Source: Nannocystaceae bacterium ST9 (GTDB taxonomy: Bacteria > Myxococcota_A > Polyangia > Nannocystales > Nannocystaceae). Taken from it: a DNA stretch of 64,000 bases. This document shows, one piece after another, positions 2,017 to 56,196 of the stretch. The stretch is from positions 1,285,642 through 1,349,641 of the forward strand of contig JBLWFJ010000001.1 of assembly GCA_048320885.1 (NCBI GenBank), in the 5' to 3' direction. Below the pieces are notes generated by a model. That model searched no databases, was not told the origin of the DNA, and worked only from the letters and a program-made list of their open reading frames with translations. Position numbers and translations under genes: made by a program. Within the stretch, counting starts at the first letter, position 1. Each line of letters starts with the position of its first letter.

Positions 2017-3828
2017 TCACATCCGTTCGGGCGCCGGGATCCCGAGCAGCTCGAGTCCCCAGCTCAGCGCGCTGCGGGTCGCCGCGACCAGCAAGAGTCG
2101 GGCCTGCACGATCGCCGGGTCGGCCTGGTGGATCACGTCGCAGGTCTGCTGAAAGTGGTTGTAGGCCTTGGCCAGCGCGTAGAGCTGGGCGCAGACCATC
2201 GAGGGCCGCAAGGTCTGGGCCGCGTGGGCGACCGTGTTGGGCAACGCCGCGATCGCCTGCAGCAGCGCCTGCTCGGCCGGCTCGGCGAACGCGTGGGCGG
2301 CCAGCCTCGCGTCGTCGCCGAGCAATGCGGGGTCGAGCGTCAGCTCGCGCTCGCCGGCCTTGCGCAGTAGCGAGGCCGAGCGGGCGGCGACGTACTGGAT
2401 CGTCGGGCCACTGTCGCCGCCGCCGATCTCGGTCCACTTGTCCATGTCGAACACGATCTTCTGGTTGTTGTCGCGGACCAACATCCCGTACTTGATCGCG
2501 CCGAGCGAGACTTGGTGGATCGCCAGGCGAATCTCCTGCTCGCTCATCGTGTCGCGCAGGCTGGCGAAGTGCCGGCGCTCGAGCGCCGCGGCCAGCTGCT
2601 CGCGCAGGGCCCGAAACAAGATCACCGTGCCGGCCCGACTCGACATCGCGCCGCTCGGCAGCTCGACCATCTCGTAGGCGACGTGCTCGCAGCGCTCGGC
2701 CTGCGGGAAGCCCATCTTCTTCAGGGTCAAGAACACCTGCTTGAAGTGGTCGCTCTGGCGAGCATCGACCACGTAGATCGAGCGATCGATCCCGTACTCC
2801 TCGAACTTCTTGCGGGCCAGCGCGAGGTCCTTGGTCGCGTAGAGCCCGGTCCCGTCGGACTTGCGCAGCATGAAGAAGGGCATGTGCTTGATCTCGGGGT
2901 TGTGGATCCCGATCGCGCCCTGGCTCTCCGCGAACACGCCCTTGGCCAAGAACTCGTCGACCAGCGCGAGCCCGGGCTCGTCGACCTCGCTCTCGTAGAA
3001 CACCCGATCGAAGTGCACGCCGCACCAGGCGTAGATCTCTTCGAACTCGTCGAGCGACCACTGCCGGGTCCGCTCCCACAGCTCGCGCCAGACCGGATCG
3101 CGGGTCTCGATCCCGTGCAGGATCGTGGTCATGCGCTCGCGCGCGGCGGCGTACTTGGCCGCGGCCTCGCCATCGCCGGCCTTGCCCGACTTCTCCCAGT
3201 CCTCGAGCTGGATCGCCGCGCGCGAGTAGACCTCGCCGAGCCACTCGCCGCGGGCCTGCGCGGGCGGGTCACCGACCGCGAGCGCCTCGAGCCCCCACAG
3301 ACACTTGGCCACGTGCGTGCCGACGTCGCCGAGGTAGTTGGCGGCCACGACTCGGTATCCGGTCGTGCGCAGCAGTCGAACCAGGCTGTCGCCCAGACAC
3401 AGGTTGCGCATGTGCCCGACGTGAAACGCCTTGTGCGTGTTGGGCTGCGAGTACTCGACCATCACCGTCGCCGGCGTCGCGGCGTACTCGGGCCGCTCGC
3501 CACGAGCCCAGGCCGGCAGCAGGATCCGCCCGACCTCGGCCGGGACCAGGCGCAGGTTGAGGTAGGGACCGGCCGGCTCGAGCCCGGCGATCAGCCCCTG
3601 CCCGACCTGCTCGCGCAGCGCCTCGGCCAGGGTCTGGGCGATCTTCGGCGGCGCCTGCTTGAGCGGCTTGCTCAGCCGAAAGCAGGGGAAGGCCAGGTCG
3701 CCCATCTCGGGCTTGGGCGGCGGCTCGAGCAGGCTGGCGATCGCGGCGACGTCGAGCTCGGGGACCAACCCCGCGACCACCGGCGCCAACACTCGAGCGA
3801 CTTCCTGGGCGAGAGCGTCGGGACGCAT
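2017..3828 (-). CDS. argS: arginine--tRNA ligase
   Basis: 603 aa starting MRPDALAQEV; class I HIGH motif (HVGHMRN); lower part of the long ORF 2017..5403, whose upstream extension is an open-frame artefact. Confidence 0.9.
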   Translation of the reverse strand: MRPDALAQEVARVLAPVVAGLVPELDVAAIASLLEPPPKPEMGDLAFPCFRLSKPLKQAPPKIAQTLAEALREQVGQGLIAGLEPAGPYLNLRLVPAEVGRILLPAWARGERPEYAATPATVMVEYSQPNTHKAFHVGHMRNLCLGDSLVRLLRTTGYRVVAANYLGDVGTHVAKCLWGLEALAVGDPPAQARGEWLGEVYSRAAIQLEDWEKSGKAGDGEAAAKYAAARERMTTILHGIETRDPVWRELWERTRQWSLDEFEEIYAWCGVHFDRVFYESEVDEPGLALVDEFLAKGVFAESQGAIGIHNPEIKHMPFFMLRKSDGTGLYATKDLALARKKFEEYGIDRSIYVVDARQSDHFKQVFLTLKKMGFPQAERCEHVAYEMVELPSGAMSSRAGTVILFRALREQLAAALERRHFASLRDTMSEQEIRLAIHQVSLGAIKYGMLVRDNNQKIVFDMDKWTEIGGGDSGPTIQYVAARSASLLRKAGERELTLDPALLGDDARLAAHAFAEPAEQALLQAIAALPNTVAHAAQTLRPSMVCAQLYALAKAYNHFQQTCDVIHQADPAIVQARLLLVAATRSALSWGLELLGIPAPERM

Positions 3829-3926
3829 GGGGCCGGAACGGTACTTCGGAGCGGCGCACGACGGCAATCGGGCCTCGCAAATCTCGCCGGCTCCATTGCG
3901 CGACCGGGCATGGTAGGAAGGGCGCC

Positions 3927-4073
3927 ATGTCCCCGACGGTCGGCGCAGCCATCCTGTTCGGCTTCCTGTGGATCGGGATCCTGACGTGCACCTTCCTGCT
4001 CTACCGCTGGCTGTTCCGCATCGATCGTGATCAGCGCGACGATCGCCACGTGCCCTTCGATCGCGGGCTCTGA
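3927..4073 (+). CDS. candidate small hydrophobic protein (48 aa)
   Basis: MSPTVGAAILFGFLWIGILTCTFLLYRWLFRIDRDQRDDRHVPFDRGL; very high GC3; GGAAGGG 6 nt upstream of the ATG; lies in the 257 bp gap between argS and the upstream minus-strand gene, on the opposite strand. Confidence 0.3.
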   Translation: MSPTVGAAILFGFLWIGILTCTFLLYRWLFRIDRDQRDDRHVPFDRGL

Positions 4074-4085
4074 TCGCTCGAGCGC

Positions 4086-5279
4086 TCAGTCCTTCGCTCG
4101 CCGAGCGGCGCGCTGCAGCTCGTCGCGTAGCGCCGACGCGATCGCGTCGCTGATCCGCTCGCCGATCCCCGACTCCGACAAGTTGCGCGAGCCGGCCAGC
4201 TCGTCCTCGCCGATCCGCAGTTCGAACGCGACCGGAAACTCGCGGCCGAGCACGCCGAGCGCGTCGCCGGCCAGCTCGAGCATCATCTTGGTGGCCAGCG
4301 TCGCCCGCTCGCCCGCGTGCAACTCGAACTCGCGCAGGGTCAGCGTCACGTCGATCTCGAGCTCGGGCGGGCTGGCCTCGGCGTGATAGCGATCGACCAT
4401 CACCAGGTCGGCGCTCCCGCCCGCGCGCACGCCCGCCGCTCGCTCGATCGGAGCGCCCAGCTCGGCCAGCGGCATGTCGTGGATCTCGAGGGTCATCTGC
4501 GGCGCGCCGTCGACCTCGTGGCTGGCCATCTCGAACTCGATGCCGGCGATCGAGCCGCGGCCGCGGCTGCGGTAGAGCGCGTCGAAGGCCGCGTGATCGC
4601 TGCGCAGCGGGCCGATGTCGAGCTCGTCGAGCTCGAGCTCGAGCTCGCGGACCTGCGCGCCGCCGTGATCGCGGACGGCCAGCGCGAGCTCGCCGACGTG
4701 CAGGCGATCGAGGCGAAATTCGCGAGCCGGCCCGGGCTGCTCGCGCTCGCGCTCGGGCGCCGCTCGACGCAGGCGATCGTAGCTGCCGCGCACGCCGTCG
4801 AGCGAGAGCTCCTCGACCGCGAACGTGGCGGTCAGCAGCGCCCCGGTGTCGATGTCGATGATCAGCTTCTCGATGTCGAGCTCGAAGCGGGCGCTGGGAT
4901 CGGCGAGGTCGCCCCGCGCCCCGGAGATCTCGAGGTGGTCGATCTCGATCCGACCGAGGATGAACGAGCCCTCGGCGTGGGCGTGGCGGACGTCGAGATC
5001 CTCGCGGTCGTCGATCGATCCGAGCACGACGTTGACCAGCGCCTCGAAGAACACCAGGTCGACCAGGACCAGCGCCACGCTCGCCAGCAACAGGCTCCAG
5101 ACCAAGCGTCGACGCAGCCGCAGCCACTGATGGCGGACCAGGTCGCTCGGGCGGCGTCGACCCATCACGATCCCGACCGCCGTTCCGAGCGTGCCCAACA
5201 CCAGCTCGACGAGGATCAGGATCCACAAGAGCAAGGGCAGCAGCAGCAGCTCGGCGACGATGACGAAGAGGGCGTCCAT
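4086..5279 (-). CDS. hypothetical membrane protein
   Basis: 397 aa, strongly hydrophobic N-terminus (LLLLPLLLWILILVELVLGTLGTAVGIV...) followed by an acidic soluble domain; coding-like GC3. Confidence 0.55.
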   Translation of the reverse strand: MDALFVIVAELLLLPLLLWILILVELVLGTLGTAVGIVMGRRRPSDLVRHQWLRLRRRLVWSLLLASVALVLVDLVFFEALVNVVLGSIDDREDLDVRHAHAEGSFILGRIEIDHLEISGARGDLADPSARFELDIEKLIIDIDTGALLTATFAVEELSLDGVRGSYDRLRRAAPEREREQPGPAREFRLDRLHVGELALAVRDHGGAQVRELELELDELDIGPLRSDHAAFDALYRSRGRGSIAGIEFEMASHEVDGAPQMTLEIHDMPLAELGAPIERAAGVRAGGSADLVMVDRYHAEASPPELEIDVTLTLREFELHAGERATLATKMMLELAGDALGVLGREFPVAFELRIGEDELAGSRNLSESGIGERISDAIASALRDELQRAARRAKD

Positions 5280-5636
5280 GCCGGAGTGACGAGCGTCCCA
5301 CGATTCGCCCCCCAGCGACCAGCGCTCGATGTGCTCGCCAAGTCGCGGGCCAATGCACGGCTCTCGGCGGCGCCCGGCGGGTCGAGGGTGGAGTTCGGAT
5401 CACGTCGGATCACGACACCCCGATCAGGCTGGCCGCGACCCGGCCCGCGCCGGCGCCCCGCGAGTCGTGAGCCCACCGACGCGACCTCGCCAAAACGGCC
5501 GTCCACGCCCGTTTCAAGCCTGTTGCGCGACGGAGCGCCGAGCCGCCAGCGTTGCAGTCTGCCACGGTGAATTACTACATTTGCGGGCCCTTCGTGCGTG
5601 CTAAACCCGAGGAGTCCGCTCGGGACGACATCCGCC

Positions 5637-43435: not shown

Positions 43436-44647
43436 TCAGGGCTCGGTGATCCGCAGCGAGACGGAGAAGATCGCCGCCGCTTCGTCGCGGGGCAGCTCGA
43501 CGAAGAGCAGCGCCTCGACGCCCTGTGCGGCCCACGACGGCAATTGCCCCTCGCCGACGATCAGCGTGTGAGGGCCGGCTTCGAGGTCCGGCGGCGCGCA
43601 GCCCTGCGCGTGATCCGGCAAGCAGTCGGGCGCACGCAAGGCCAAGCCCACGCGAGGGTCGTCCGCGACGATCTCCAGCCGCGCCTGGGGAGAGATCTCC
43701 GCGCCCGCGGGCCAACGCAAGCGATGGACCCGCTCGGGCCGACGCCAACCCGTGCACGAATGAGCGTGAGCATCGCCGTGCGCTTCGCTGGTGTCGATCG
43801 CGAGCACGAGGGTCTCGCCCGGAGGCAGCAGCGCGAGCTCGCCCGGGTCGGCGCAGCTCTCGGCCTCGGGCCGACGACAGCGATCGACCGCGAGCTCGGC
43901 TTCGATCGCGGACAGGCAGAGCGTCCCGGTCTCGCAGCGACCGAGCCCCGCGTCGCAGCGCTCGCCTTCTTCGATCACCGCGCGCAAGGTCAGCTCGAGC
44001 TCGACCTCGAGCGGATCGAACACGCCGGGTGCGGGTGTCGGGGTCGCGAGCGCGGGGTCGTCGACCGCGGCTCCGATCGCGAGCAGCAGCTCGGTGCCGG
44101 GTCGGAGATCCTCGACCACGACCGGCAGCGCGTCGACGCAGGCGAGCAGACGATCGCGATCGAGCGCCTCGCTGGCGCAGCCGGCTTGCAGGGTCGCGAC
44201 GCGCGGGATCACCTGACCGCCGCGCGCGTGGATCCGAAGGTCGGCGCGGATCGGGACCTCGACGCGCACGAACCCGATCGGGCCGCCCTCGCCGAGCGCA
44301 CAGTCGAGGCCGATCGGCGGGACGTCGAAAGCGATCGTCTCGACCAGTGGACGCAGCGAGCCGCGCAGGGTCGCGGGCAGCCGGTGGATCGCCGCGTCGG
44401 TGCAGGTCGGCGTGAAGTCGGTCGGCAGCTCGTCGCCGGTGTCCGTCTCGCTGGTCTCGCTCTCGCCCGCGCCCGCGCGCAGGCTCGCCGGCGCGTCGCT
44501 CGTGCAGGCCGTCGCGAGCAAGAGCGCGAGCGAGACCAGCGAGGCGAGCGAACGACGACGCGGGAGCACCGAGCCGAGAGTAGCCTCGTTCGTGGTCGAA
44601 CCATGAAGATGTTCTGGGTCGCCGCGGTGATCGACGAATCGGCGCAC
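43436..44647 (-). CDS. hypothetical secreted/lipoprotein
   Basis: Signal plus Cys (LVSLALLLATAC); acidic linker SETSETDTGDE; Cys-containing C-domain. Confidence 0.6.
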   Translation of the reverse strand: MRRFVDHRGDPEHLHGSTTNEATLGSVLPRRRSLASLVSLALLLATACTSDAPASLRAGAGESETSETDTGDELPTDFTPTCTDAAIHRLPATLRGSLRPLVETIAFDVPPIGLDCALGEGGPIGFVRVEVPIRADLRIHARGGQVIPRVATLQAGCASEALDRDRLLACVDALPVVVEDLRPGTELLLAIGAAVDDPALATPTPAPGVFDPLEVELELTLRAVIEEGERCDAGLGRCETGTLCLSAIEAELAVDRCRRPEAESCADPGELALLPPGETLVLAIDTSEAHGDAHAHSCTGWRRPERVHRLRWPAGAEISPQARLEIVADDPRVGLALRAPDCLPDHAQGCAPPDLEAGPHTLIVGEGQLPSWAAQGVEALLFVELPRDEAAAIFSVSLRITEP

Positions 44648-44759: not shown

Positions 44760-45818
44760 GTGACCTCGAAGCCCCACGACGCGCTGTTCAAGACCGCGTT
44801 CGAGCTGCCCGAGAGCGCCGCCGACCTGGCGCGCCACAATCTTCCCGCGTCGGTCGCCGCCGCGATCCGCTGGTCGACGATGGAGCTCGCGCCCGGCTCC
44901 TTCATCGCGCCCTCGCTCGCCGACCACCACAGCGACCTGCTCTTTCGCGTCGAGACCGAGATTGGCGACGCCCTGATCTACCTGCTCTTCGAGCACCAGA
45001 GCACCAACGACCCCCGCATGCCCCTGCGAATGCTCGTGTACATGCTGCGGATCTGGGAGCGCCACGCCAAGGAGCACGAAGGCTCGCCGCTTCCGCCGAT
45101 CATTCCCTTGCTGATCTGCCACGCGACGAATGGCTGGACCTCGCCGCGAAGCTTCCACGAGCTCTTCCCGACCACGCTCGCCGCGGTCCCCGAGCTCGCG
45201 CAATTCGTGCCGAGCTTCACCCTGCTCGTCGACGATCTCACTCATGTGACCAACGACGAACTCGAGGCCCGCGCGCTCGCGGGCGTCGCCAAGCTCGCGC
45301 TGTGGCTGCTCCGTGACGGTCGCTTTGCCAACCAGATCCTGGCCAACTTGCCCGCATGGGCTCACGCCATCCGTGAGGCGATGCGCACGCCGAGCGGGAG
45401 GTCGGCCCTGCGTTCTCTGTTCAGCTACTTGGTGGAGGTCAACGAGGGGCTGACCTACGACCTGTTTCATGCCAAGCTCGAAGAACACGCCCCCGAAGCT
45501 GCACGGGAATTCATGACGATCGCAGACAAATTGCTCAACGAAGGTCACGCCAAGGGCCGCATCGAAGGCCGCAACGAGGGTCGCGTCGAAGGCCGCAACG
45601 AAGGTCGCGTCGAGGGTCGCGTCGAGGGTCGCGTCGAAGGTCGCGTCGAAGGTCGTGTCGAAGGTGCGGCGAGCGTGCTGAGCAAGCTGCTCGGGCTGAA
45701 GTTCGGCGAGCTGCCCGAGCCCTACCGAGCACGCCTCGCCCATGCGAGCCCCGACGAGCTCGACGCCTGGACCGACCGAGTGCTCACCGCGGCGACGCTC
45801 GAGCAAGTCTTCGCCTGA
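44760..45818 (+). CDS. Rpn-family recombination-promoting nuclease / putative transposase (YhgA-like, PD-(D/E)xK)
   Basis: N-terminal DALFKTAFELPESAADLARHNLPASV family signature; C-terminal EFMTIADKLLNEGHAKG followed by GR(I/V/N)EGR repeats as in Rpn C-termini. Confidence 0.7.
   Translation: MTSKPHDALFKTAFELPESAADLARHNLPASVAAAIRWSTMELAPGSFIAPSLADHHSDLLFRVETEIGDALIYLLFEHQSTNDPRMPLRMLVYMLRIWERHAKEHEGSPLPPIIPLLICHATNGWTSPRSFHELFPTTLAAVPELAQFVPSFTLLVDDLTHVTNDELEARALAGVAKLALWLLRDGRFANQILANLPAWAHAIREAMRTPSGRSALRSLFSYLVEVNEGLTYDLFHAKLEEHAPEAAREFMTIADKLLNEGHAKGRIEGRNEGRVEGRNEGRVEGRVEGRVEGRVEGRVEGAASVLSKLLGLKFGELPEPYRARLAHASPDELDAWTDRVLTAATLEQVFA
45555..45665 (+). repeat. 12 bp coding tandem repeat (ggtcgcgtcgaa-type, about 9 copies)
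   Basis: Encodes GRIEGRNEGRVEGRNEGRVEGRVEGRVEGRVEGRVEG inside the Rpn-like gene. Confidence 0.75.
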
Positions 45819-45850
45819 CGACGCCGGCCATCGAGATCGCGCAGAAATTC

Positions 45851-46099
45851 ATGACGATCGCCGACAAGTTGCTCGACGAAGGTCGCGCCAAGGGTCGCAT
45901 CGAGGGCCGCGTCGAAGGTCGCATCGAAGGTCGCGTCGAAGGTGCCGCGAGCGTGCTGAGCAAGCTACTCGGGCTGAAGTTCGGCGAGCTGCCCGAGCTC
46001 TATCGAGCTCGCCTCGCCCAGGCGCGGCCCGACGAGCTCGATGCCTGGACCGATCGAGTGCTCACCGCAGCGACGCTCGAGCAGGTCTTCGCCGACTAA
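45851..46099 (+). pseudogene. duplicated 3' fragment of the Rpn-like gene
   Basis: MTIADKLLDEGRAKGRIEGRVEGRIEGRVEGAASVLSKLLGLKFGELPELYRARLAQARPDELDAWTDRVLTAATLEQVFAD is near-identical to the C-terminus of 44760..45818. Confidence 0.55.
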
Positions 46100-49000
46100 C
46101 CAAAACTCCGCACCCACATCGCCTTGCCCGCGGTCGCCAACCACAGCCCGAAGCGCCCGAGAAACAACATCTCCCCGCGCGGCCGCCAGCGCTCGAGCGC
46201 CTTGCGATAGAGCAGCAGCTGCGGCCCGTACTCCCACTGGAGGTCCTGCATCTGCGCGACCGAGCGGACCTTGTGGCTGGCCTTGTAGTCGAGCACGTTC
46301 CACAGCCCGGCGTCGTCGCGCCAGAGCAGGTCGAGTCGGCCGCTGATCCGATCGAGGCGCGGCGACTCGCGGACCAGCGCGTCGAGGTCGACCTCGTGAA
46401 AGAGCTGGTTGCGGGCCCTCGCGGCGCGCAGCTCGGGCAAGAGCTCGCTCTCGGCGAAGCGCTCGACGCAGCGGCTCAGCCACTGGGTCAGTCGGCGCTG
46501 GTCGGCGGCGTCGCGCTGGCCGAAGTGGATCGTCACGCGCTCGGCCAGGCGCGAGCCGGTCGGCGGATCGCCGACGAAGTCCCAGGCCTGCATCGCGGCG
46601 TGGAAGAGCTCGCCGAGTCGGCGTGGATCTTCGTCGTCGAGCAGGATCGGCTGGCGCGCGGGCAGAGGCATGTCCCACTCGAGCTCGCTGACCGGCCAGG
46701 GTGATCGACCCGCGCTCGGCTGCCAGGTGGTCAGGGCCGAGCCCGCGCGCCAACGCATCACCGGGTCGCTCGGGGGCTCCGGGATCGGCTTGGTCGGCGA
46801 GCTCGTGGGCGTGGGCTCGACGATCTCGATCGCCGTCGGTCGACGCAGAAACGACTCGAAGTCGAGCTGGACCGGACCGCTCAACAACAAGGGTGGCAGC
46901 GCGCGCTTGAGCGGCTCGGGTTCGGGTTCGGGCTCCGGCGCGAGCTCGGGTTCGGGCGCCGGCGCGTCGACGATCGGCACCTCGCTCGCCCGCGCGAGCC
47001 CGGACAGCAGCATCGCGTCCTCGATCACCTGCACGTGCGCGAGGCTCCACGCGCCCGCGCGCGGTCGCATGACGCCGGCGGCCGGCAGATCGAGCGCGGT
47101 GATCAGCAGCTCGAGCGGTCGCTTGCACAGATAGAAGGGCTTGGGCTCGCCCAACAAGGGATCGACCGACGCCCGATAGTCGAGCCCCAACCACGGCTTG
47201 TCGTCCCAGTGCACGAAGCTGCGCGCGTCGGTCTCGCCCGAGAGCACCAGGCGATCGCGGGCGCGGGTCAGCGCGACGTAGAGCAGCCGCTTGGCCTCGG
47301 CGGCCTCGAGCGGGGCGAGCATGTTGGCGCAGGGCTCGTGCAGCGGATCGGGCTCGGCCCAGAACCCGTGATGCGGGCCGCGGATCCGCGGGACCGGCAG
47401 GACCTCGCCGTGCACGGGATCCAGCGCGGGCAAGGTCGGCACGCCGGCGCGACTCCAGCTCGTGCGCGCGCCGGCCTCGCGATACTCGCCGAGCCCCGCG
47501 ACGATCACCACCGGCCACTCCTTGCCCTTCGATCCGTGCCAGGTGGTGATCGTGACCGCGTCGGCGTCGGGCGAGATCAGGCCCTCGGGGGCCGGCTCGG
47601 CGCCGGCGTCGAGCCAGGTCGCGAGTCGCTGGAGATCGGGGCCCTCGCTCTCGAGCAGGCGGACGTGCTCGACGAAGCGCCAGGCGTTGGCGACGGCTCG
47701 CCGCTCGCGGGTGCTGGCCAGCCAGTGGGCTTCGAGGCGGAACTCGGCGATCACCTCGGCGAGCAGATCGCCGCTCGCTCGCCCGCCCGCATGCCGCTCG
47801 ATCGCTCGCAGGCGATCGCGGCCGTGCTCGAGCGCCCGGGCGTCGGCGATCAAGAGCTCGCGCGCGCTCTCGCGGGCCTCGGGCGCGAGCACGCCGGCCG
47901 AGTCGAGCGCCGCGAGGGCCCGCTCGGGATCGAGTCGAGCGTGGCGCAGCAGCACGTGCATCGGCCGGGCGCGCGTGCCTTCGTCGAGCGCCCAGGGCTC
48001 CCAGACCTCGTCGATCGCGGCGAACTCGGGCAGGTCGGGGTCGGCCTCGGCGATCCGACGATCGACCCCGGGCCAGCGCGCCAGCACGTAGAGCCCGAGA
48101 TCCGAGATCGCCATGGCGGGCCCACGCAGCACGCCGAGCGCGGCCAGGTCGTCGTGCTCGTCGGCCCACGAGCGCAGCAGGTTGATCAGGTCGCGGACCT
48201 CGGCGAGCAAGAGCAGCCCGCGACCGCCGGCGAGATCGGCCGCGATGCCCTGGGCCTCGAGCGCGATCCGATGATCCTCGGCGAGGTTCCAGCGCGGGAT
48301 CAGGATCGCCACGTCGCGCGCACGCAGGCGAGGATCGGCCAGCAACCCACGCACGCGCGCGGCCACGCGGGCGGCCTCGCCGGCCAACTCGGGCGTCGGC
48401 TCGCCCATCCGCCGAGCGTCGCGGATCAACAGATCGACGGCCAGGCCCTCGAGCTCGTCGCGCTCGCGCAGGGCGACGATCGGCCCGTCCCAGCGGACCT
48501 CGGCGTGATCGGGGATCTCGAGCAGGCGCGCGAGCTCGGGCGGGCGCGTGGCCGCGCTCGGCATCCGCCCGGAGAAGAGCACGGGGAAGAGCGCGTCGAA
48601 GAAGCGAGCGAGCGTCGGCGAGCTGCGTCGGTTCTCGCCGAGCGCGAGGATCGAGTCGCGGTGCAGCGCCTCGGCCCGCGCGAACACCTGCGGGTCGGCG
48701 CCGCGAAACCGATAGATCGACTGCTTGGGATCGCCGACGTAGAACAGCTTGGTGTCCTGCTCGCCGCAGGCTTCGGCGAGCCGATCGAGGATCTCGGCCT
48801 GGATCGGGCTGATGTCCTGGTACTCGTCGACGAGCAGGTGGCGATGCCGGCCTCGCAGGTGCGCGCGCGCTCGCGGGTGCGCGAGCAGATCGAGCGCGAG
48901 CTGCTCGAGGTCGTCGTAGCGCAGCAGCGCCCGCCCGCGCAGGCTCTCGGCCCAGTCGCGGCGGACCCAAGTCGCGAGCTCGATCCAGCGGGCGAGGTGC

Positions 49001-50064
49001 TCGGCGTGCTCGCGCGAGCGCGAGCGAACCGGATCGGGCAGCACCAACCGCTCGCGGCGAGTCCCGGCCACGCGGATCATGTCGCGCAGGTGATGATGGA
49101 GGTTGGCGATCTGTCCGAGCTCGCGGTGCGGTCGGATCCGACGCAGCTCGTCGATGTCGTTGGCGACGCTGGCGAGATCGGGCTCGGGCAGGTGACGCTG
49201 GAAGATCCGCGTGAGCGCCTCGCCGAGCTCGCGCAGGCGGGCCGAGTTGGGCTTGCGCTGGAGCTCGAGCACGCAGAACTGCCACACGCCGGCCATCGCG
49301 GGCTGGAGCACGGCCAAAAACTCGCGCCACTGCGTGCGCACGAACAGCTCGCGCGCGCGCAGGAGATCGTCGGCGTGGACCGGACCGGGCGCGTGGCGAT
49401 CGGTCAACGCGGCGCCCGGCGGATCCGCCCAGCCGGCCGCGGGCGGATCGCGATCGTCGACCATCGCCCGCAGCTCGCCGCGCACGAACCTCAGCGGATG
49501 CAGGCGCAGCAGCTCGAGCACGCGGCGATGCCCGACGTGCCCGCCCTCGTCGATCGCACGATCGATCCACCCGGCCACGAACGCGTCGAGCTCGAGCGAC
49601 TGCTCGGCGGGCTCGAGCGCGCGCGCGTCCGGGGGCACGCCGCCGAGCTCGGGGAACTCGGCGAGCAGGCGCGCGCAGTAGGAGTGCAGCGTGCCGATCG
49701 GCGCGGCAGCCAGGCGCTCGGCCAGGTTCAGGCGCTCGGCGTGGCTGCGCAGCGCGGCGATCCGAGCCAGCACCGGATCGTCGTCGGCGTCGAGGCCCGC
49801 GTGCTCGCCGGTGAGCGCGGCGAACAAGCGCGCGCGCATCTGGGCCGCGGCCGCGCGCGTGAAGGTGACCGCGACGACCTGATCCGGTGTCGCCCAGGGC
49901 TCGCGGGTGCCCGGTCGCGCGCCGGCGACGATCCACAGGTAGCGCCGAACCAGGCGCCAGGTCTTGCCCGTGCCGGCGCTCGCGACCAGCACGACCGAGC
50001 GACGCGGATCGAAGATCGGCCCGAATTCGTGTTGATCGTCATGCAGCTCGACCCTGCTCGTCAT
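46096..50064 (-). CDS. AddA-like UvrD-family helicase with C-terminal PD-(D/E)xK nuclease domain
   Basis: 1322 aa from MTSRVELHDDQHEF; Walker A ASAGTGKT; UvrD motifs (LFYVGDPKQSIYRFRGAD, LLYVALTRARDRLVLS); C-terminal nuclease LDYKASH; the ORF 46096..53166 upstream extension is an open-frame read-through. Confidence 0.8.
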   Translation of the reverse strand: MTSRVELHDDQHEFGPIFDPRRSVVLVASAGTGKTWRLVRRYLWIVAGARPGTREPWATPDQVVAVTFTRAAAAQMRARLFAALTGEHAGLDADDDPVLARIAALRSHAERLNLAERLAAAPIGTLHSYCARLLAEFPELGGVPPDARALEPAEQSLELDAFVAGWIDRAIDEGGHVGHRRVLELLRLHPLRFVRGELRAMVDDRDPPAAGWADPPGAALTDRHAPGPVHADDLLRARELFVRTQWREFLAVLQPAMAGVWQFCVLELQRKPNSARLRELGEALTRIFQRHLPEPDLASVANDIDELRRIRPHRELGQIANLHHHLRDMIRVAGTRRERLVLPDPVRSRSREHAEHLARWIELATWVRRDWAESLRGRALLRYDDLEQLALDLLAHPRARAHLRGRHRHLLVDEYQDISPIQAEILDRLAEACGEQDTKLFYVGDPKQSIYRFRGADPQVFARAEALHRDSILALGENRRSSPTLARFFDALFPVLFSGRMPSAATRPPELARLLEIPDHAEVRWDGPIVALRERDELEGLAVDLLIRDARRMGEPTPELAGEAARVAARVRGLLADPRLRARDVAILIPRWNLAEDHRIALEAQGIAADLAGGRGLLLLAEVRDLINLLRSWADEHDDLAALGVLRGPAMAISDLGLYVLARWPGVDRRIAEADPDLPEFAAIDEVWEPWALDEGTRARPMHVLLRHARLDPERALAALDSAGVLAPEARESARELLIADARALEHGRDRLRAIERHAGGRASGDLLAEVIAEFRLEAHWLASTRERRAVANAWRFVEHVRLLESEGPDLQRLATWLDAGAEPAPEGLISPDADAVTITTWHGSKGKEWPVVIVAGLGEYREAGARTSWSRAGVPTLPALDPVHGEVLPVPRIRGPHHGFWAEPDPLHEPCANMLAPLEAAEAKRLLYVALTRARDRLVLSGETDARSFVHWDDKPWLGLDYRASVDPLLGEPKPFYLCKRPLELLITALDLPAAGVMRPRAGAWSLAHVQVIEDAMLLSGLARASEVPIVDAPAPEPELAPEPEPEPEPLKRALPPLLLSGPVQLDFESFLRRPTAIEIVEPTPTSSPTKPIPEPPSDPVMRWRAGSALTTWQPSAGRSPWPVSELEWDMPLPARQPILLDDEDPRRLGELFHAAMQAWDFVGDPPTGSRLAERVTIHFGQRDAADQRRLTQWLSRCVERFAESELLPELRAARARNQLFHEVDLDALVRESPRLDRISGRLDLLWRDDAGLWNVLDYKASHKVRSVAQMQDLQWEYGPQLLLYRKALERWRPRGEMLFLGRFGLWLATAGKAMWVRSFG

Positions 50065-52961
50065 GACGAAGGCCCCATGGCCGCGAGCACGCCCGGCAGG
50101 CCGGTCGCGCGGCGATCGAGGCTGGGCACGACCCGCGCGACTTCGAAGATCCGCTTGGCGCTCGGCGGGATCCGGCGGCCCGTGGGCGTGCGGACGACGA
50201 CCGGGAAGTAGCCGCTCTCGATCGCGCTGACGAAGGCGAGCGCGAACCCGGCCGCGGCCTGCACGACCGTCCAGACGTTGCCGCGCGCGTCGAGCCCGAG
50301 CGGGGCGGTCGGCACGAAGCCTCGCACGACCGGCGGCGAGGGTCGGTTGCCCGAGCGCGGCGGCGGGCGCTTGAGATACTCGAGCCGCAGCGCGCCGACC
50401 GAGACCGGCGCGGGCAGACGCAGCGCCGCGGGATCGCTGCGCATGACCTGCTCGACCGCCAGCGCGTAGAGCCCGAGCTGCAAGTGCGTGCCCGCGCGCA
50501 GCTCGGCCTGCAGCGCGGCCGGCCAGGCCGGCATGCCGGTCTTGTAGTCGCAGACGTTGACCCGCTGGCGATAGGGATCGATCTCGATCCGATCGATCGC
50601 GGCGGCGAAGGGGATCGATCGCGGGCCGAGCTCGAGCTCGAAGCCCTCGCCCGGCGACCACTCGCTGGCCAGCACGAAGGGCGCCGGGACCAGCTCGTCG
50701 GGCTCGCGCCGGCCTTCGTCGCCGCCGCCCCAGGCCTTGCGCAGCCGGCCGACCCACGACTCCCACCACGCGCTCATCTCGACCGCCCAGCGATCGCGCT
50801 CGCTCGCCCAGATCGCCTCGGCCTGGCCATGCTCGGCGCGCTTGCGATAGCCGGCGTCGAGCGCCGCGAGCACCTCGGCGAGCAGCGGCTCGGCGATCGA
50901 CGCGACCTCGAGCGGCTCGGTCCGACCCGCGAGCCGCTCGGCCAGCGCCCGATCGATCGCCCGGTGCACGACCTGGCCTTGCTCGCTGGCTTGCAGCCCG
51001 CCCGCGTCGGGCTCGCGACCCTCGCGCTGACCGAGCCCGAGCACGCGCTCGACGAAGTAGCGGAAGGGCAAGCCGGCGTAGCTCTGCAGCGTGCTCGCCG
51101 AGTAGATCGCCGGCGGGATCGCGAGTCCGAGCGCGCCGGTGTGCGGACCGACGATCGCGGCCTCGTGGCTGCGGATCGCCTGCACGCGGCGGGTGAGCTC
51201 TTCGCTCGCCCCGACGCCCGCGAGCTCGCGCTCGATCGGCGCGATCGGCTTGCTCGGCTCGCCGACCGCGAGCGCGATCGCATCGACCCCGACCGCCACG
51301 CAGCGGCCCTGCTCTCGCTCGTCTTGCCGACCGGCGATCCAGGGCCCGGGCGCGAGCTCGTTGCCGGCCCCGTCGCTGCGGCGATGGCTGGCGATCACCC
51401 GGCCCGGAAAGCTCGCGACGATCGCGTCGAGCCGACGCAGCTCGCCGGCGAAGCGGCGCGCCTCGCCGACCAGGCCGATCCGCTCGCGCAGCGAGTCGGA
51501 CAGCGGCGCATGCAGGCGCGGGATCGGATGGCGATCGAGCCCGGTCATGAACACGCGCGCCGGCAGGCGATCGAGCACCGCGTCGTAGGGCAGCAACCAC
51601 ACCGGCGCCGGCCCACGCTCGGACTCGTGCTCGATCCACTCGCCGGCCGCCGCGAGGTGGAGGGCGTGATCGATCGCGATCGCCAGCTCGGCGCGGGTCG
51701 GCGGCGTCACGCCGCTCGCGTCGTCGGCCAGGCGCGCGAGCGTGTCCTCGATCGCCCGCGCGGCCGTCCGCTCCGCGCCCGCGCCATGCAGGCTCGCGCG
51801 CGCGAGCAGCTGCCAGTCGTCGAGCAGATCCTGCAATGCGCTCGCGCTCGGCTCGGCCCGCCAGCGCGCCAGTCGTTCGATCGCCGTCGCGATCGCCAGC
51901 TCGGCCGCGCCCTCCGATCCGCGCAGACGATCGACCAGCGCGTCGAGCCCGATCGCCGCGCCGCGCTGGCGCTCCCATGCCCGGCGCAGCCCGGCGACGT
52001 CGACCCCCTCGGGCAGCTCGGTCCAGGGGCGCAGCGCCGGACCGAAGAGCAGCGCGTCGAGATCGTCGCGGCGGGCGAGCGGCTGATCGGCGATCCGCAG
52101 CAGCGCACGCGTGGCCCGAGCCGCGGCGCTCGAACGGGCCGGGCGAGTCACCCACGCGCGAACCGGGATGTCGCGATGGCGCAGGCGGGCCGCCCAACGA
52201 TCGATCATGTCGGCCGGCGCGAGCAGGGCCGCCGCCTCGCCGCCGGTCCGCAGCAGGCGAGCGATCGCGGCGATCTCGGCCTCGGGCCCCGCACACTCGA
52301 GCCGCATCGCCAGCGATCCGCGACCTCGGCCGGGCAGCTCGAGCGCCCACGACTCGAACCCGAGCCGGGCGATCAGCTGCTTCTCCCACGCGGCCACGGC
52401 CTCGCCCTCGAACCCGATCGCGATCGCGGCCGCCCGCCGGTTCAGAAACGCGACCCGCTCGTGTCCGGCCAGCACCCGCGCGAGCGCCTGACCCCGCCAC
52501 CAGCTCCCGCCGCCGCGCTCGGCCAGCCGCTCGTCGATGCCGACGCGAAAGCGGGCGAACGCGTCGAGCAGCGCGCGGTCGCGGCTCTCGGGCTCGCTCG
52601 CGGCGATCAACCTGGCGAGGTCGAGCTCGCCGATCGCCAACACCCGCTCGAGCTCGACGAACGCGCCCAACAGCTCGCGCTGGTAGCCGCCGTGGTCGGC
52701 CAGCGCGGCGAACTCGGCCGCCAGCGAGCGCCGGACCTCGGCGAGCACGTGCAACATCGGCAGCCCGGGGCCCGCGAGCTCGACGGCCGCCTCGCTCAGC
52801 AGCGCGTCGGGATCGAGCACGCGCACGCCGACCAGGGTCGCCCGCTCGACGAGCAGGCTCTGCAACCATCGCGCCGCCGCTGCGCCGCGGACCAACACCA
52901 GCACCCGCCCCGGGCTGTGCCTGTCGATCCGCGCGAGCAGCCGGGCGAGCAGATCCTCCAT
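50061..52961 (-). CDS. AddB-like PD-(D/E)xK nuclease subunit (degenerate helicase-like N-region)
   Basis: 966 aa from MEDLLARLLARIDRH; RecB-type nuclease motif VCDYKTG...LQLGLYALA near the C-terminus; stop overlaps the AddA-like ATG (ATGA). Confidence 0.7.
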   Translation of the reverse strand: MEDLLARLLARIDRHSPGRVLVLVRGAAAARWLQSLLVERATLVGVRVLDPDALLSEAAVELAGPGLPMLHVLAEVRRSLAAEFAALADHGGYQRELLGAFVELERVLAIGELDLARLIAASEPESRDRALLDAFARFRVGIDERLAERGGGSWWRGQALARVLAGHERVAFLNRRAAAIAIGFEGEAVAAWEKQLIARLGFESWALELPGRGRGSLAMRLECAGPEAEIAAIARLLRTGGEAAALLAPADMIDRWAARLRHRDIPVRAWVTRPARSSAAARATRALLRIADQPLARRDDLDALLFGPALRPWTELPEGVDVAGLRRAWERQRGAAIGLDALVDRLRGSEGAAELAIATAIERLARWRAEPSASALQDLLDDWQLLARASLHGAGAERTAARAIEDTLARLADDASGVTPPTRAELAIAIDHALHLAAAGEWIEHESERGPAPVWLLPYDAVLDRLPARVFMTGLDRHPIPRLHAPLSDSLRERIGLVGEARRFAGELRRLDAIVASFPGRVIASHRRSDGAGNELAPGPWIAGRQDEREQGRCVAVGVDAIALAVGEPSKPIAPIERELAGVGASEELTRRVQAIRSHEAAIVGPHTGALGLAIPPAIYSASTLQSYAGLPFRYFVERVLGLGQREGREPDAGGLQASEQGQVVHRAIDRALAERLAGRTEPLEVASIAEPLLAEVLAALDAGYRKRAEHGQAEAIWASERDRWAVEMSAWWESWVGRLRKAWGGGDEGRREPDELVPAPFVLASEWSPGEGFELELGPRSIPFAAAIDRIEIDPYRQRVNVCDYKTGMPAWPAALQAELRAGTHLQLGLYALAVEQVMRSDPAALRLPAPVSVGALRLEYLKRPPPRSGNRPSPPVVRGFVPTAPLGLDARGNVWTVVQAAAGFALAFVSAIESGYFPVVVRTPTGRRIPPSAKRIFEVARVVPSLDRRATGLPGVLAAMGPSS

Positions 52962-53195
52962 CGTCGGCGTACAGATAACCCAATCGGGCCCCGACCGGAC
53001 GGCTCCAAATGGCTCGCCGGCCCTGCGCTCGGGCGAGATCTCTCGCTCTCGTGCCGAAACGGAGATCTGCACCTCGGTCTCGCGACCGACGCGAGCTCGG
53101 ATCGGCGTACGGCGATCGTCTTCCACGCTCGCCCACCCGCGACGCGGCGAGAGCACTGCTTGACATGCCCAGTGGCCACCCCGAGCCTGTTTGCG

Positions 53196-54698
53196 ATGTC
53201 TCGTTCGCCTCGCCATTCGCTCTCTCTCGTCCTCTTCGTTGGTTCGTTCGGTCTGGCTTGCAAGGGTGGTGGTGAGACCGACTCTCGCGGTGACACGGTC
53301 GGCTCGACCGCCGAGGACACCAGCGCCGACACCTCGACCGACACCTCGACCACCAACGTCGCGACCACGGAAGACGACGCGACGACCCAGAGCCCCGCCA
53401 CCTGCGGCGACGGTCAGGTCGACGAGGGCGAGGAGTGCGACGACGCCAACGACGTCGACACCGACGCCTGCACCAACAGCTGCACCAACGCGATCTGTGG
53501 CGACGGGATCGCGCAAGCCGGGGTCGAGGCCTGCGACGACGCCAACACCGTCGACACCGACGCCTGCACCAACGCGTGCGCCAACGCGACTTGTGGCGAC
53601 GGCATCGTCGAGGACGGGGTCGAGACCTGCGACGACGGCAACGCCGACGACACCGACGACTGTCCGACCAGCTGCGCGCCGGCCAGCTGCGGCGACGGCT
53701 TCGTGCAAGCCGGCGTCGAGGCCTGCGACGACGGCAACACCGACGACAGCGACGGCTGCGTCGCCGGCTGCGTCGCCGCAGGCTGTGGCGACGGCTTCGT
53801 CCAGAACCGGGTCGAGGCCTGCGACGACGGCAACGACGTCGACGACGACGCCTGCACCAACGCCTGCGCGCTGGCCAGCTGCGGCGACGGGATCGTCCAG
53901 ATGGGCGAGGAGTGCGACGACGACAACGCCGTCGACACCGACGCCTGCCCGAGCAATTGCCTCACGGCGACCTGCGGCGACGGCTTCGTGCAAGCCGGCG
54001 TCGAGACCTGCGACGACGCGGGCGAGTCGGACGTGTGTGACGCCGACTGCAGCGCGGCGAGCTGTGGCGACGGCGTGCTCAACACCAGCGCCGGCGAGGC
54101 GTGCGACGACGGCAACATGATCGACACCGACGCGTGCGTCAGTGACTGCGCCGACGCCAGCTGCGGCGACGGATACGTGCGAGCCGGGGTCGAGGAGTGC
54201 GACGACGGCAATGGCGTCGACGACGACCAGTGCGCCAACGACTGCACCGAGAACACCTGCACGCCCACGGGCCAGCGCGCGCCCTTCGTCACGATCGGCA
54301 ACGACACCGCGAGCGGCTGCTGGAACGGCAACCCCTGCGCGTTCGACAGCTTCGCGTGGGATGCCTCCCACGGCCAGGACTTCCAGGCCTTCGACCAGGG
54401 CGTGACCTGTTCGGGCGCCACGACCTGCGTCGCCAACGTCGGCATCACCACCTACAACAGCGGCAGCGTCTGCCAGGGCAAGTGGGACGTGCTCTGCGAC
54501 GGCCAAGTCGTCGGCTCGATCAACACGATCGGGGTGGCTTGCAGCGGCTCGGCCATGAACAACGCCTGCCGGGCGACCTTCCCGGCCATCGAGTGCGCCA
54601 GCATCCGGCTGGTCGCCGTGCAGGACAACGACGTGACCACGGGCTGCTGCGGCGGATCCAACCCCGACTCGATGATCACGGGCGTCAGCGCCTGGTAG
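53196..54698 (+). CDS. secreted lipoprotein with myxobacterial Cys-rich repeats (third paralogue) and a distinct Cys-rich C-terminal domain
   Basis: Signal/lipobox-like FVGSFGLAC; acidic T/S/D linker; about 10 CGDG repeats; roughly 150 aa non-repeat C-terminal domain. Confidence 0.8.
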   Translation: MSRSPRHSLSLVLFVGSFGLACKGGGETDSRGDTVGSTAEDTSADTSTDTSTTNVATTEDDATTQSPATCGDGQVDEGEECDDANDVDTDACTNSCTNAICGDGIAQAGVEACDDANTVDTDACTNACANATCGDGIVEDGVETCDDGNADDTDDCPTSCAPASCGDGFVQAGVEACDDGNTDDSDGCVAGCVAAGCGDGFVQNRVEACDDGNDVDDDACTNACALASCGDGIVQMGEECDDDNAVDTDACPSNCLTATCGDGFVQAGVETCDDAGESDVCDADCSAASCGDGVLNTSAGEACDDGNMIDTDACVSDCADASCGDGYVRAGVEECDDGNGVDDDQCANDCTENTCTPTGQRAPFVTIGNDTASGCWNGNPCAFDSFAWDASHGQDFQAFDQGVTCSGATTCVANVGITTYNSGSVCQGKWDVLCDGQVVGSINTIGVACSGSAMNNACRATFPAIECASIRLVAVQDNDVTTGCCGGSNPDSMITGVSAW

Positions 54699-54864
54699 CG
54701 AAACGAGCGCGAGCGTCGGCGCGAAGGTCGTCCACCGCTCGTCCACAGCGAGCGCGCAGTTCGTCCACAACTCGTCCACAGCCGCGCAAGCGCTCTTCTT
54801 CGACCTCGCACGCGATCCTTCGCGCGTCTGCGCGCTCGTTCGCGACGACGATGTCCACACCGCG

Positions 54865-56196
54865 ATGTCGCGCGCGCGTGCAAGGGCTATCCTGCCGACG
54901 ATGTCGCGGATCGGCGAGGAACTCGATGCCCTCCTGACCTGGATCGCCGCGACCCCCTTCGCGTCCTACTGCGACGCGCTCGCGCGGGCCGAGGTCGATC
55001 TCGCCGACTACGAGGCCGTGTTCGCGCTGGCCGGCTTCCCGATCCCGTCCGCGCTGCGCGAGCTGGTCGGCGAGCGCGGGTTGATCGGCCTGCCGCGGAT
55101 CGCCGGGCCCTTCGATCTCCCCGGCGGTCAGTTCGGACTCTCGCTCGATCCCCCCGAGTCGCTGTTCGCCAACTACGTCCACCACTGCGCCGAGCAGGAC
55201 GCCGGGGTCGGGCTCGGGCGCCACTGGCTGGTGTTCGCGACGATCGGCGGCGACCTCGAGGGCGCGTGGGCGCTCGACGATCGCTTCGGCGGGGGTGCGA
55301 GCGCGCGCGAGTACGGCGTGGGTTGGTATCATCAAGACGAGGTCTGCGAGGTCGAGCGCGGCCTGGCCGATCCGCTGCCGGGCGGCTGGCTCGGCGTCGA
55401 GGCGTTCTTCTGCGATCTGTTCGCGCGTGGCCGGGCCGGGTTCGAGCGAGCGCTCGCCGATCGCTCGGCTCGCGCCGCGCTCGAGCAGTCGCTCGACGAG
55501 CTGAGCGTGCCCGGCTTCGATCGACCCTGGCACGAGGATCCTCGATCTTGGCGAGCGCTGCTCGACGACGACCTCGACTGGAACCGCGGCCGCCGACGCG
55601 ACTTTCGAACCGCGCTCGCCCACGCCGACGATCTCGATCTGGTCGCGTGGATCCTGTCGGAGATCGATCGCGATCTCGCCGAGGGCTCGCGCCGGCCGGT
55701 CGTGCCCGGCATCCGGCAGATGCTCGAGGGCGGGCTCGGCTGGCCCTGGGACTACCCGGGTCCGCGCGAGCTGGTCCATCGCCTGCCGATCGGTGCGTGG
55801 ACCGGCCCCGCGCTGGTGCGTTGGGCGATCGAGCTCGCCGGTCCGCGATCCGAGCAGCCCGAGCTCGCCCGCGCGCTCGCCATGCTCGACGCGCTCGCCG
55901 AGCCGACGCCGAAGGCCACCCACGCCGACGCGCTGGCCGTGGCGATCGAGCTGGCCGAGCTGGCCCGCCGCGACGCCCGACTCTCGCCGGCCGAGCGCTC
56001 GCTCGCGTGGGCCTTGGTCTGGTCGCTCGGTCGACCCACACCCGCCGCGACCTGGGAGGCCCTGGAGCGAGTGCTGCAATTCGCGAAGCTCGTTCGTGCT
56101 CCGGCTCGCGCGCCACTCGACGCCGTGGTCCTGCATCGCAAGTTGGCCGCGATCGTGCGCGGCAAGCCGGACTGGCAGCCCAAGAGCTTCGGCTGA
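54865..56196 (+). CDS. hypothetical protein (possible SMI1/KNR4-like)
   Basis: 443 aa; a segment HWLVFATIGGDLEGAWALDDRFGGG is weakly reminiscent of SUKH-1; no strong motif. Confidence 0.4.
   Translation: MSRARARAILPTMSRIGEELDALLTWIAATPFASYCDALARAEVDLADYEAVFALAGFPIPSALRELVGERGLIGLPRIAGPFDLPGGQFGLSLDPPESLFANYVHHCAEQDAGVGLGRHWLVFATIGGDLEGAWALDDRFGGGASAREYGVGWYHQDEVCEVERGLADPLPGGWLGVEAFFCDLFARGRAGFERALADRSARAALEQSLDELSVPGFDRPWHEDPRSWRALLDDDLDWNRGRRRDFRTALAHADDLDLVAWILSEIDRDLAEGSRRPVVPGIRQMLEGGLGWPWDYPGPRELVHRLPIGAWTGPALVRWAIELAGPRSEQPELARALAMLDALAEPTPKATHADALAVAIELAELARRDARLSPAERSLAWALVWSLGRPTPAATWEALERVLQFAKLVRAPARAPLDAVVLHRKLAAIVRGKPDWQPKSFG

Follow-up and report, generated by a model that had tools for sequence, protein, structure and literature searches.

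A Nannocystaceae rpn locus with a putative intragenic antitoxin and a free-standing downstream copy that differ by five repeat units

The rpn genes have been described as toxin-antitoxin genes-within-genes, in which an internal start allows the variable C-terminal domain to be made on its own as a small protein, RpnS, that blocks the toxic full-length protein, RpnL (Zhong et al. 2023, PNAS, PMC10400941). RpnL and RpnS share four-residue repeats that are encoded by dodecamers, begin 8-20 residues after the RpnS methionine and lie in a long first helix; their number varies from strain to strain (PMC10400941). These repeats set toxin-antitoxin specificity, and one unit added to a single partner abolishes neutralisation (PMC10400941). 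Some loci carry in addition a second, free-standing downstream copy, named RpnSs (ypaA after rpnE, rpnCSs after rpnC), which bears a DUF4351 label in some species; the YpaA protein of E. coli is translated (PMC10400941). Rpn biology is covered further in PMC10400984. Here we describe an rpn locus at positions 44760 to 46099 of a 64,000-nucleotide stretch of the genome of Nannocystaceae bacterium ST9 (contig JBLWFJ010000001.1), referred to below as the window. It consists of a long gene, rpnL, that contains an internal cistron, rpnS, and of a small downstream open reading frame (ORF), rpnSs. With a probability of roughly 0.78, we read it as an Rpn toxin-antitoxin module of the type reported by Zhong et al. 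(2023), with RpnL, RpnS and an older RpnSs duplicate. The layout is the RpnL/RpnS/RpnSs architecture already described in E. coli in 2023, and the locus is therefore a fresh example and not a fresh kind of system.

The long ORF, rpnL, lies on the plus strand (44760..45818) and encodes 352 residues between a GTG start and a TGA stop. Its start aligns with the MTxRPHD of homologs, and its guanine-plus-cytosine (GC) content at third codon positions (GC3) is 0.85. The original prediction had placed the gene in the Rpn/YhgA family, and this assignment holds: PF04754 (Transposase_31) matched residues 4-179 of the product with 151.6 bits (cut-off 21, E=2.8e-44) and TIGR01784 matched it with 75.3 bits (cut-off 52.1), both above the curated thresholds. 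The cut-offs of the equivalog models were not reached (89.8 versus 583 bits for RpnA and 106 versus 583 bits for ISNCY, NF007418), which places the protein within the family but not among the orthologs of any named E. coli Rpn. In RpnA, activity needs D11, D63, E82, Q84 and R94 (Kingston et al. 2017, PMC5350276). When residue numbering was mapped via the motifs of E. coli RpnE, all five residues were found in the rpnL product as D7, D59, E78, Q80 and R90, each offset by exactly 4, in a catalytic core stretch (44778..45029, plus strand). In an alignment of 29 homologs (A2), D59 and E78 are invariant and R90 is conserved in at least 90% of the sequences. Because the five residues required in RpnA are all present, this full-length PD-(D/E)XK nuclease, the predicted toxin of the locus, is probably active. 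Matches of FliH, Yae1_N and Bactofilin to the E/G/R-rich repeat of the protein were far under their cut-offs and were rejected as compositional.

The full-length rpnL product is absent from a collection of 5.8 billion proteins, in which the adjoining 82-residue ORF is present at 100% identity; the ST9 record may carry the rpn gene as a pseudogene or may not call it at all. No close relative of the locus was found in the protein, genome or metagenome collections searched, the best protein homolog being 62% identical. An exact 31-mer scan of metagenome contigs gave 0 matches to the locus, and exact look-ups of both window proteins and of P0121 returned no contig.

The rpnS cistron begins in frame at Met252 of rpnL (MTIADKLL..., ATG at 45513) and extends to the same stop codon (45513..45818, plus strand, 101 residues). 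We designate it as the predicted intragenic antitoxin on account of its conserved methionine: M252 is at least 90% conserved in alignment A2. For a broader view, we used a comparison set of 80 related Myxococcota rpn loci. A methionine occupies the position aligned to M252 in 61 of the 80 genes, and a Shine-Dalgarno (SD) core is found at -17..-4 of this internal methionine in 80% of the 61, versus a background of 11.6% at the other codons in these genes (p=6e-35). In the Sorangium loci L011, L018, L024, L029, L035, L039, L040, L047, L057, L061 and L063, valine replaces the internal methionine (motif EEIVTIAD); this codon may be a GTG internal start, or the internal start may have been lost.

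Shortly after the internal start, rpnL carries an array of nine 12-bp units (array A, 45555..45662, plus strand), read in frame as GRIE, GRNE, GRVE, GRNE and five GRVE and preceded by a degenerate GHAK (45543-45554). The original prediction had counted about nine such units, in agreement with this codon reading. Tandem Repeats Finder delimited the array, with a 12-bp period, at 45539..45665 (10.6 copies, score 142). The GR(I/N/V)E units begin at residue 15 of RpnS, or at residue 11 when the degenerate unit is counted, and this onset of 11-15 residues past the internal methionine fits the published rule of 8-20 residues (PMC10400941). Each unit consists of one hydrophobic or variable residue, a glycine and charged residues, as published. 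That Rpn repeats are normally shorter, another point of the original prediction, was borne out in the 120 nearest homologs, whose median is 2.9 units and maximum 8.5, against 9.5 for the window gene under the same counting rule. Array A is long but not unique, since other Myxococcota loci (L022, L023, L042 and L081) have 8-11 units and the range among homologs is 0-11.

The small ORF, rpnSs, is a free-standing paralog of rpnS (45851..46099, plus strand) with an ATG start, a TAA stop and 82 codons. It contains a second array of 12-bp units (array B, 45893..45940, plus strand), read as GRIE, GRVE, GRIE and GRVE after a degenerate GRAK (45881-45892); Tandem Repeats Finder placed it, again with a 12-bp period, at 45877..45943 (5.6 copies, score 78). 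The two copies of the module align with a single clean gap of 60 columns, equal to five units. They are 91.7% identical in DNA over the 218 bp after the arrays (45598-45815 versus 45876-46093) and about 90% identical over the first 42 coding nucleotides. Hence the module has been duplicated downstream with its own start, and the copies differ by nine versus four units, both as had been claimed from the letters. No third copy of the module occurs in the 64-kb window. At the protein level, RpnSs is 90% identical to the window RpnS and at most 53% identical to anything else. It is also 100% identical to MFV8750006.1 (hypothetical protein ACNOYE_05620, Nannocystaceae bacterium ST9), a coding sequence called in the NCBI record. 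The duplication is not an assembly artefact, because about 8% of positions and the number of units differ between the copies and the small ORF is present in that record. The AlphaFold2 model of the 82-residue protein (pLDDT 87.5) has a helix at residues 3-44 that holds the repeats, followed by three short helices. Fold searches did not recover PDB 7TH0, the RpnA-S structure.

The boundaries of the duplication coincide with those of the rpnS cistron. The duplicated block starts 12 nt before the ATG and closes with the last sense codon (repeat family D1, starting at 45501 and 45839). A spacer of 32 nt (45819..45850, plus strand) separates the rpnL stop from the rpnSs start; in this spacer, homology to the sequence before the internal ATG (45501-45512) is limited to the final 12 nt (45839-45850). 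Upstream of the two copies, identity amounts to 75% in the last 12 nt and falls to 30% at -45..-13, compared with an expectation of 29% for random 33-mers. This sharp drop indicates that conservation is confined to the cistron. A plain head-to-tail duplication of a larger block was rejected because 45816-45838 (23 nt) and the -45..-13 region have only random-level identity to the sequence upstream of the first copy. The copy would therefore have arisen in another way, or else the spacer has since been replaced. Within array A, units 5-9 differ from their neighbours by 0-1 nt. Because these units are near-identical while the flanking duplicated sequence is 8% diverged, array A is best explained by an expansion after the duplication, through slippage or unequal exchange; the active repeat expansion of the original prediction is thus plausible.

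The pattern of substitutions bears on whether RpnSs is retained as a protein. Over 65 alignable non-repeat codons, 11 synonymous and 5 non-synonymous changes were counted, corresponding to a synonymous divergence (dS) of 0.26 and a non-synonymous divergence (dN) of 0.035. Of the 16 differences, 12 are third-position changes (p=3.5e-4 versus neutrality). With a dN/dS of 0.135, RpnSs appears to be an old duplicate that is kept as a coding sequence under purifying selection. The opposite view holds that a partial duplication left the downstream ORF behind as a non-functional fragment, which is decaying and has stayed open by chance. This view would account for the lack of an SD core or promoter-like signal at rpnSs and for a repeat mismatch that makes RpnSs useless as an antitoxin under the published rule, and it can point to ypaA, to which the K-12 RefSeq record gives a pseudogene flag. 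A neutral copy at a dS of about 0.26 should, however, show a much higher dN/dS and probably a broken frame. The start and stop codons of rpnSs are instead intact, the homology ends sharply 12 nt before the ATG with random-level identity beyond it, and E. coli YpaA is a translated protein.

The related Myxococcota loci provide evidence on both sides of this question. A downstream free-standing copy is found in about 10% of them (L008, L015, L076 and two in L078, among 67 complete genes). The copy of L008 (Enhygromyxa salina SWB007, 5034..5201) is an RpnSs-like ORF that has lost its central helices by internal deletion and keeps an MTIAEELHQKG start and a TADTIDAVFAD end; it is a decaying free-standing copy, as a leftover would be. 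L015 and L078 instead have intact free copies with low non-synonymous divergence and thus a signature like that of the window. In L015, a Kofleriaceae metagenome-assembled genome, the proportions of synonymous (pS) and non-synonymous (pN) differences between the copies are 0.122 and 0.013. Taken with the substitution pattern at the window locus, these intact copies make it unlikely that rpnSs is a mere remnant, and we favour the reading in which it is a retained member of an Rpn module.

In the L015 and L078 pairs, as in the window, a free copy on the same strand lies directly downstream and has fewer units than the intragenic copy. Their repeat units are different (RQEG and LQQG), and the duplicated block reaches further upstream there and includes the SD core. 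L078 (Enhygromyxa salina SWB005, NZ_PVNK01000015.1) has a tandem rpn-rpnSs-rpn-rpnSs arrangement at 2079..5485, in which the LQQG units number 4 against 1 in the first pair and 6 against 3 in the second; its free copies keep an upstream SD-bearing leader identical to the intragenic one. Across the three cleanest pairs, the free copy is shorter by 4 units in L015 and by 3 in each of L078a and L078b, compared with 5 in the window. In the cases examined, namely the window, L015, the L078 pairs and E. coli K-12, RpnS and RpnSs as a rule differ in unit number. Such a mismatch as a general feature was not found in the main text of Zhong et al. 2023 or its commentary.

The closest described counterpart is the rpnE-ypaA pair of E. 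coli K-12. In both, a small ORF on the same strand follows the rpn gene at once (after 12 bp in K-12 and 32 bp in the window) and copies the C-terminal domain from the conserved internal methionine; RpnE-S and YpaA start with MTIAE, and the window module is 39% identical to E. coli YpaA over 38 residues. In both, the free copy differs from the intragenic one by whole four-residue units and resembles its own upstream gene more than any other, a sign of local duplication. The two loci also differ in several respects. The mismatch in the window amounts to five units (9 versus 4), whereas in K-12 the free copy, ypaA, is the longer one, by one unit; RpnE carries an annotation as inactive, but in the window protein the catalytic residues are intact; a strong SD sequence (AGGAG) precedes ypaA and none precedes the window copy; and the host of the window locus is a high-GC myxobacterium. 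With E. coli RpnA and RpnC (RpnA-S, PDB 7TH0), the window protein shares an N-terminal PD-(D/E)XK domain with D, E-x-Q and R motifs and a variable C-terminal domain, modelled as helical in the window, with a putative internal start and dodecamer-encoded four-residue repeats in the predicted first long helix. The C-terminal domains themselves have no detectable sequence similarity, and the array of the window is longer than that of nearly all homologs sampled.

A further likeness is to stand-alone DUF4351 (PF14261) proteins, which are of similar size (78-137 residues) and have (E/K)GRxE repeats followed by an L-x-x-RFG-x-LP...W...R-x-L motif. Free-standing homologs of this type, some of them named DUF4351, come from several phyla and occur in Planctomycetota, Castellaniella, Streptomyces and metagenomes, and several homologs of both the long and the short window protein carry PF14261. 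The window proteins themselves differ in scoring only 17-19 bits (17.0 and 19.1), under the Pfam gathering threshold of 25. The module has an existing explanation that the original prediction missed: it is the predicted intragenic antitoxin RpnS, and downstream copies of RpnS are documented (PMC10400941).

By analogy with the E. coli work, the module would function as follows. The 352-residue RpnL would be a PD-(D/E)XK DNA endonuclease and, like other members of the family, would depend on Mg and be toxic and SOS-inducing when overexpressed. Its frame would be translated again from Met252 to give a 101-residue RpnS identical to the C-terminal helical domain of RpnL, and RpnS would neutralise the nuclease by binding through this shared domain. 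The GR(I/N/V)E units would lie within one long alpha-helix, and their number would set the helix length and hence which RpnS pairs with which RpnL. Replication slippage or unequal recombination would alter the number of 12-bp units, the last five of which look like a recent expansion. RpnSs, with four units, would stem from an older duplication that took in only the rpnS cistron, and purifying selection would have preserved it.

This reading builds on features observed at the locus itself, namely family membership, the catalytic residues, the conserved internal methionine, the repeat anatomy, the duplication boundaries and the selection signature, and on the recurrence of the layout elsewhere; translation of RpnS and RpnSs, toxicity, neutralisation and an anti-phage function are predicted from the E. 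coli work. Several points weigh against it. The ATG at 45513 has no upstream SD core, only GGGA and none of AGGA, GGAG or GAGG, and the ATG of rpnSs at 45851 likewise lacks one. A sigma-70 scan gave no promoter-like site, and the promoter and terminator scan of the locus yielded nothing usable. Translation of both small proteins is therefore putative. The locus lies among housekeeping genes (metK and AddAB-like genes) with no recognisable defence island, PADLOC 2.0 has no matching model, and the sub-threshold DUF4351 scores add to these points. Finally, the mismatch of nine versus four units conflicts with a simple role of RpnSs as a second antitoxin under the published matching rule. Because a single-unit mismatch abolishes neutralisation by this rule, RpnSs is unlikely to be a fully equivalent antitoxin for the nine-unit RpnL. 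RpnSs was also considered as the matched antitoxin of an ST9 paralog of rpnL and rejected for the closest one, P0001 (about 65% identical), whose RpnS helix is one unit shorter than that of RpnSs (hand count in A2) and thus no exact match. A five-unit mismatch in a copy that is apparently under purifying selection is what the two-component model leaves unexplained.

A non-redundant role of RpnSs was also considered. In the window and the three cleanest pairs from Myxococcota, the free copy falls short of the intragenic one by 3-5 units. The free copy could be deliberately kept at another helix length, either as a non-cognate partner that tunes or senses activation (e.g. by pairing with RpnS in mismatched heterodimers and so freeing RpnL) or as a stored recombination cassette. 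We regard this general proposal as tentative and rather doubtful. In its specific cassette form, RpnSs would be an alternative C-terminal module in store: recombination between the direct repeats would delete about 278 bp, fuse the nuclease to the four-unit module and so reset both helix lengths in one step. Direct repeats of 218 bp at 92% identity, including a perfectly identical block of 31 bp, could support such an exchange, and the unit number of the free copy differs in the window, in L015, in both L078 pairs and in E. coli K-12. The event would nevertheless be one-way and would destroy the spare copy. Purifying selection is equally expected if RpnSs acts as a protein, and no close relatives that might carry recombinant alleles were found in the protein, genome and metagenome collections. 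On balance, a stored cassette seems improbable, and RpnSs as a retained duplicate within an Rpn toxin-antitoxin module is the reading that we keep.

The genes around the locus were inspected with regard to function and mobility. Downstream, on the minus strand, lie an AddA-like helicase-nuclease (46096..50064), identified by UvrD-helicase, UvrD_C and C-terminal PDDEXK_1 domain matches, and an AddB-like ORF (50061..54965) with a PDDEXK_1 match only. The AddA models are the best NCBIfam models for the former, far below the equivalog cut-offs (171 versus 861 bits). At its start, the AddA-like gene shares 4 bp with the ORF upstream of it, and its stop shares 4 bp with that of rpnSs (46096-46099), which leaves no room for a terminator. 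Inside the AddA-like gene (46913..46957), an array of 7.5 copies of a GGCTCG hexamer codes on the minus strand for an (EP)n-type linker (…PEPELAPEPEPEPEPL…). Upstream, a 403-residue ORF without a Pfam or NCBIfam match separates metK from the rpn gene (43436..44647, minus strand); it is coding-like (GC3 0.86), and its N-terminus (…LALLLATACTSD…) resembles a lipoprotein signal peptide. The original prediction was right that AddAB-like recombination genes adjoin the rpn gene, but this adjacency is not conserved. It is absent in the 80 related loci, with only short helicase-motif similarity in four Sorangium loci, and at the two closest metagenomic homologs (P0002 and P0003) both the adjacency and the downstream small copy are absent and the contexts are unrelated. 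A functional link with AddAB was accordingly rejected as coincidental.

The unrelated contexts of the closest homologs suggest mobility or horizontal transfer. Together with the historical family name Transposase_31 and the match of 106 bits to NF007418, the NCBIfam ISNCY family transposase model, they could be taken to mean that the gene is an insertion sequence transposase and the duplication a by-product of transposition. That match is nonetheless far from its cut-off of 583 bits, and autonomous transposition of rpn genes was rejected in the published analysis (Zhong et al. 2023, PMC10400941; also PMC10400984). Flanking inverted repeats, which had been proposed as a possible sign of mobility, were looked for: the rpn gene is flanked neither by credible terminal inverted repeats nor by target-site duplications, and the best inverted repeats, 70-82% complementary, were discounted because this is chance-level matching in 70% GC DNA. 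An origin of the locus by transposition is thus extremely unlikely, and an Rpn toxin-antitoxin module with a duplicated rpnS cistron remains our preferred reading.

The locus extends the antitoxin-within-toxin architecture, including a free-standing RpnSs, to Myxococcota, and the fitting annotation for ACNOYE_05620 is that of a small RpnS-like or DUF4351-like protein. With nine versus four units, it offers an extreme natural test case for the single-unit mismatch rule. If RpnSs still neutralises or modulates its neighbour, the specificity rule needs revision; if it does not, some other function must account for the evidence of purifying selection on RpnSs. With a non-cognate or cassette role, if true, the two-component Rpn model would gain a third functional part.

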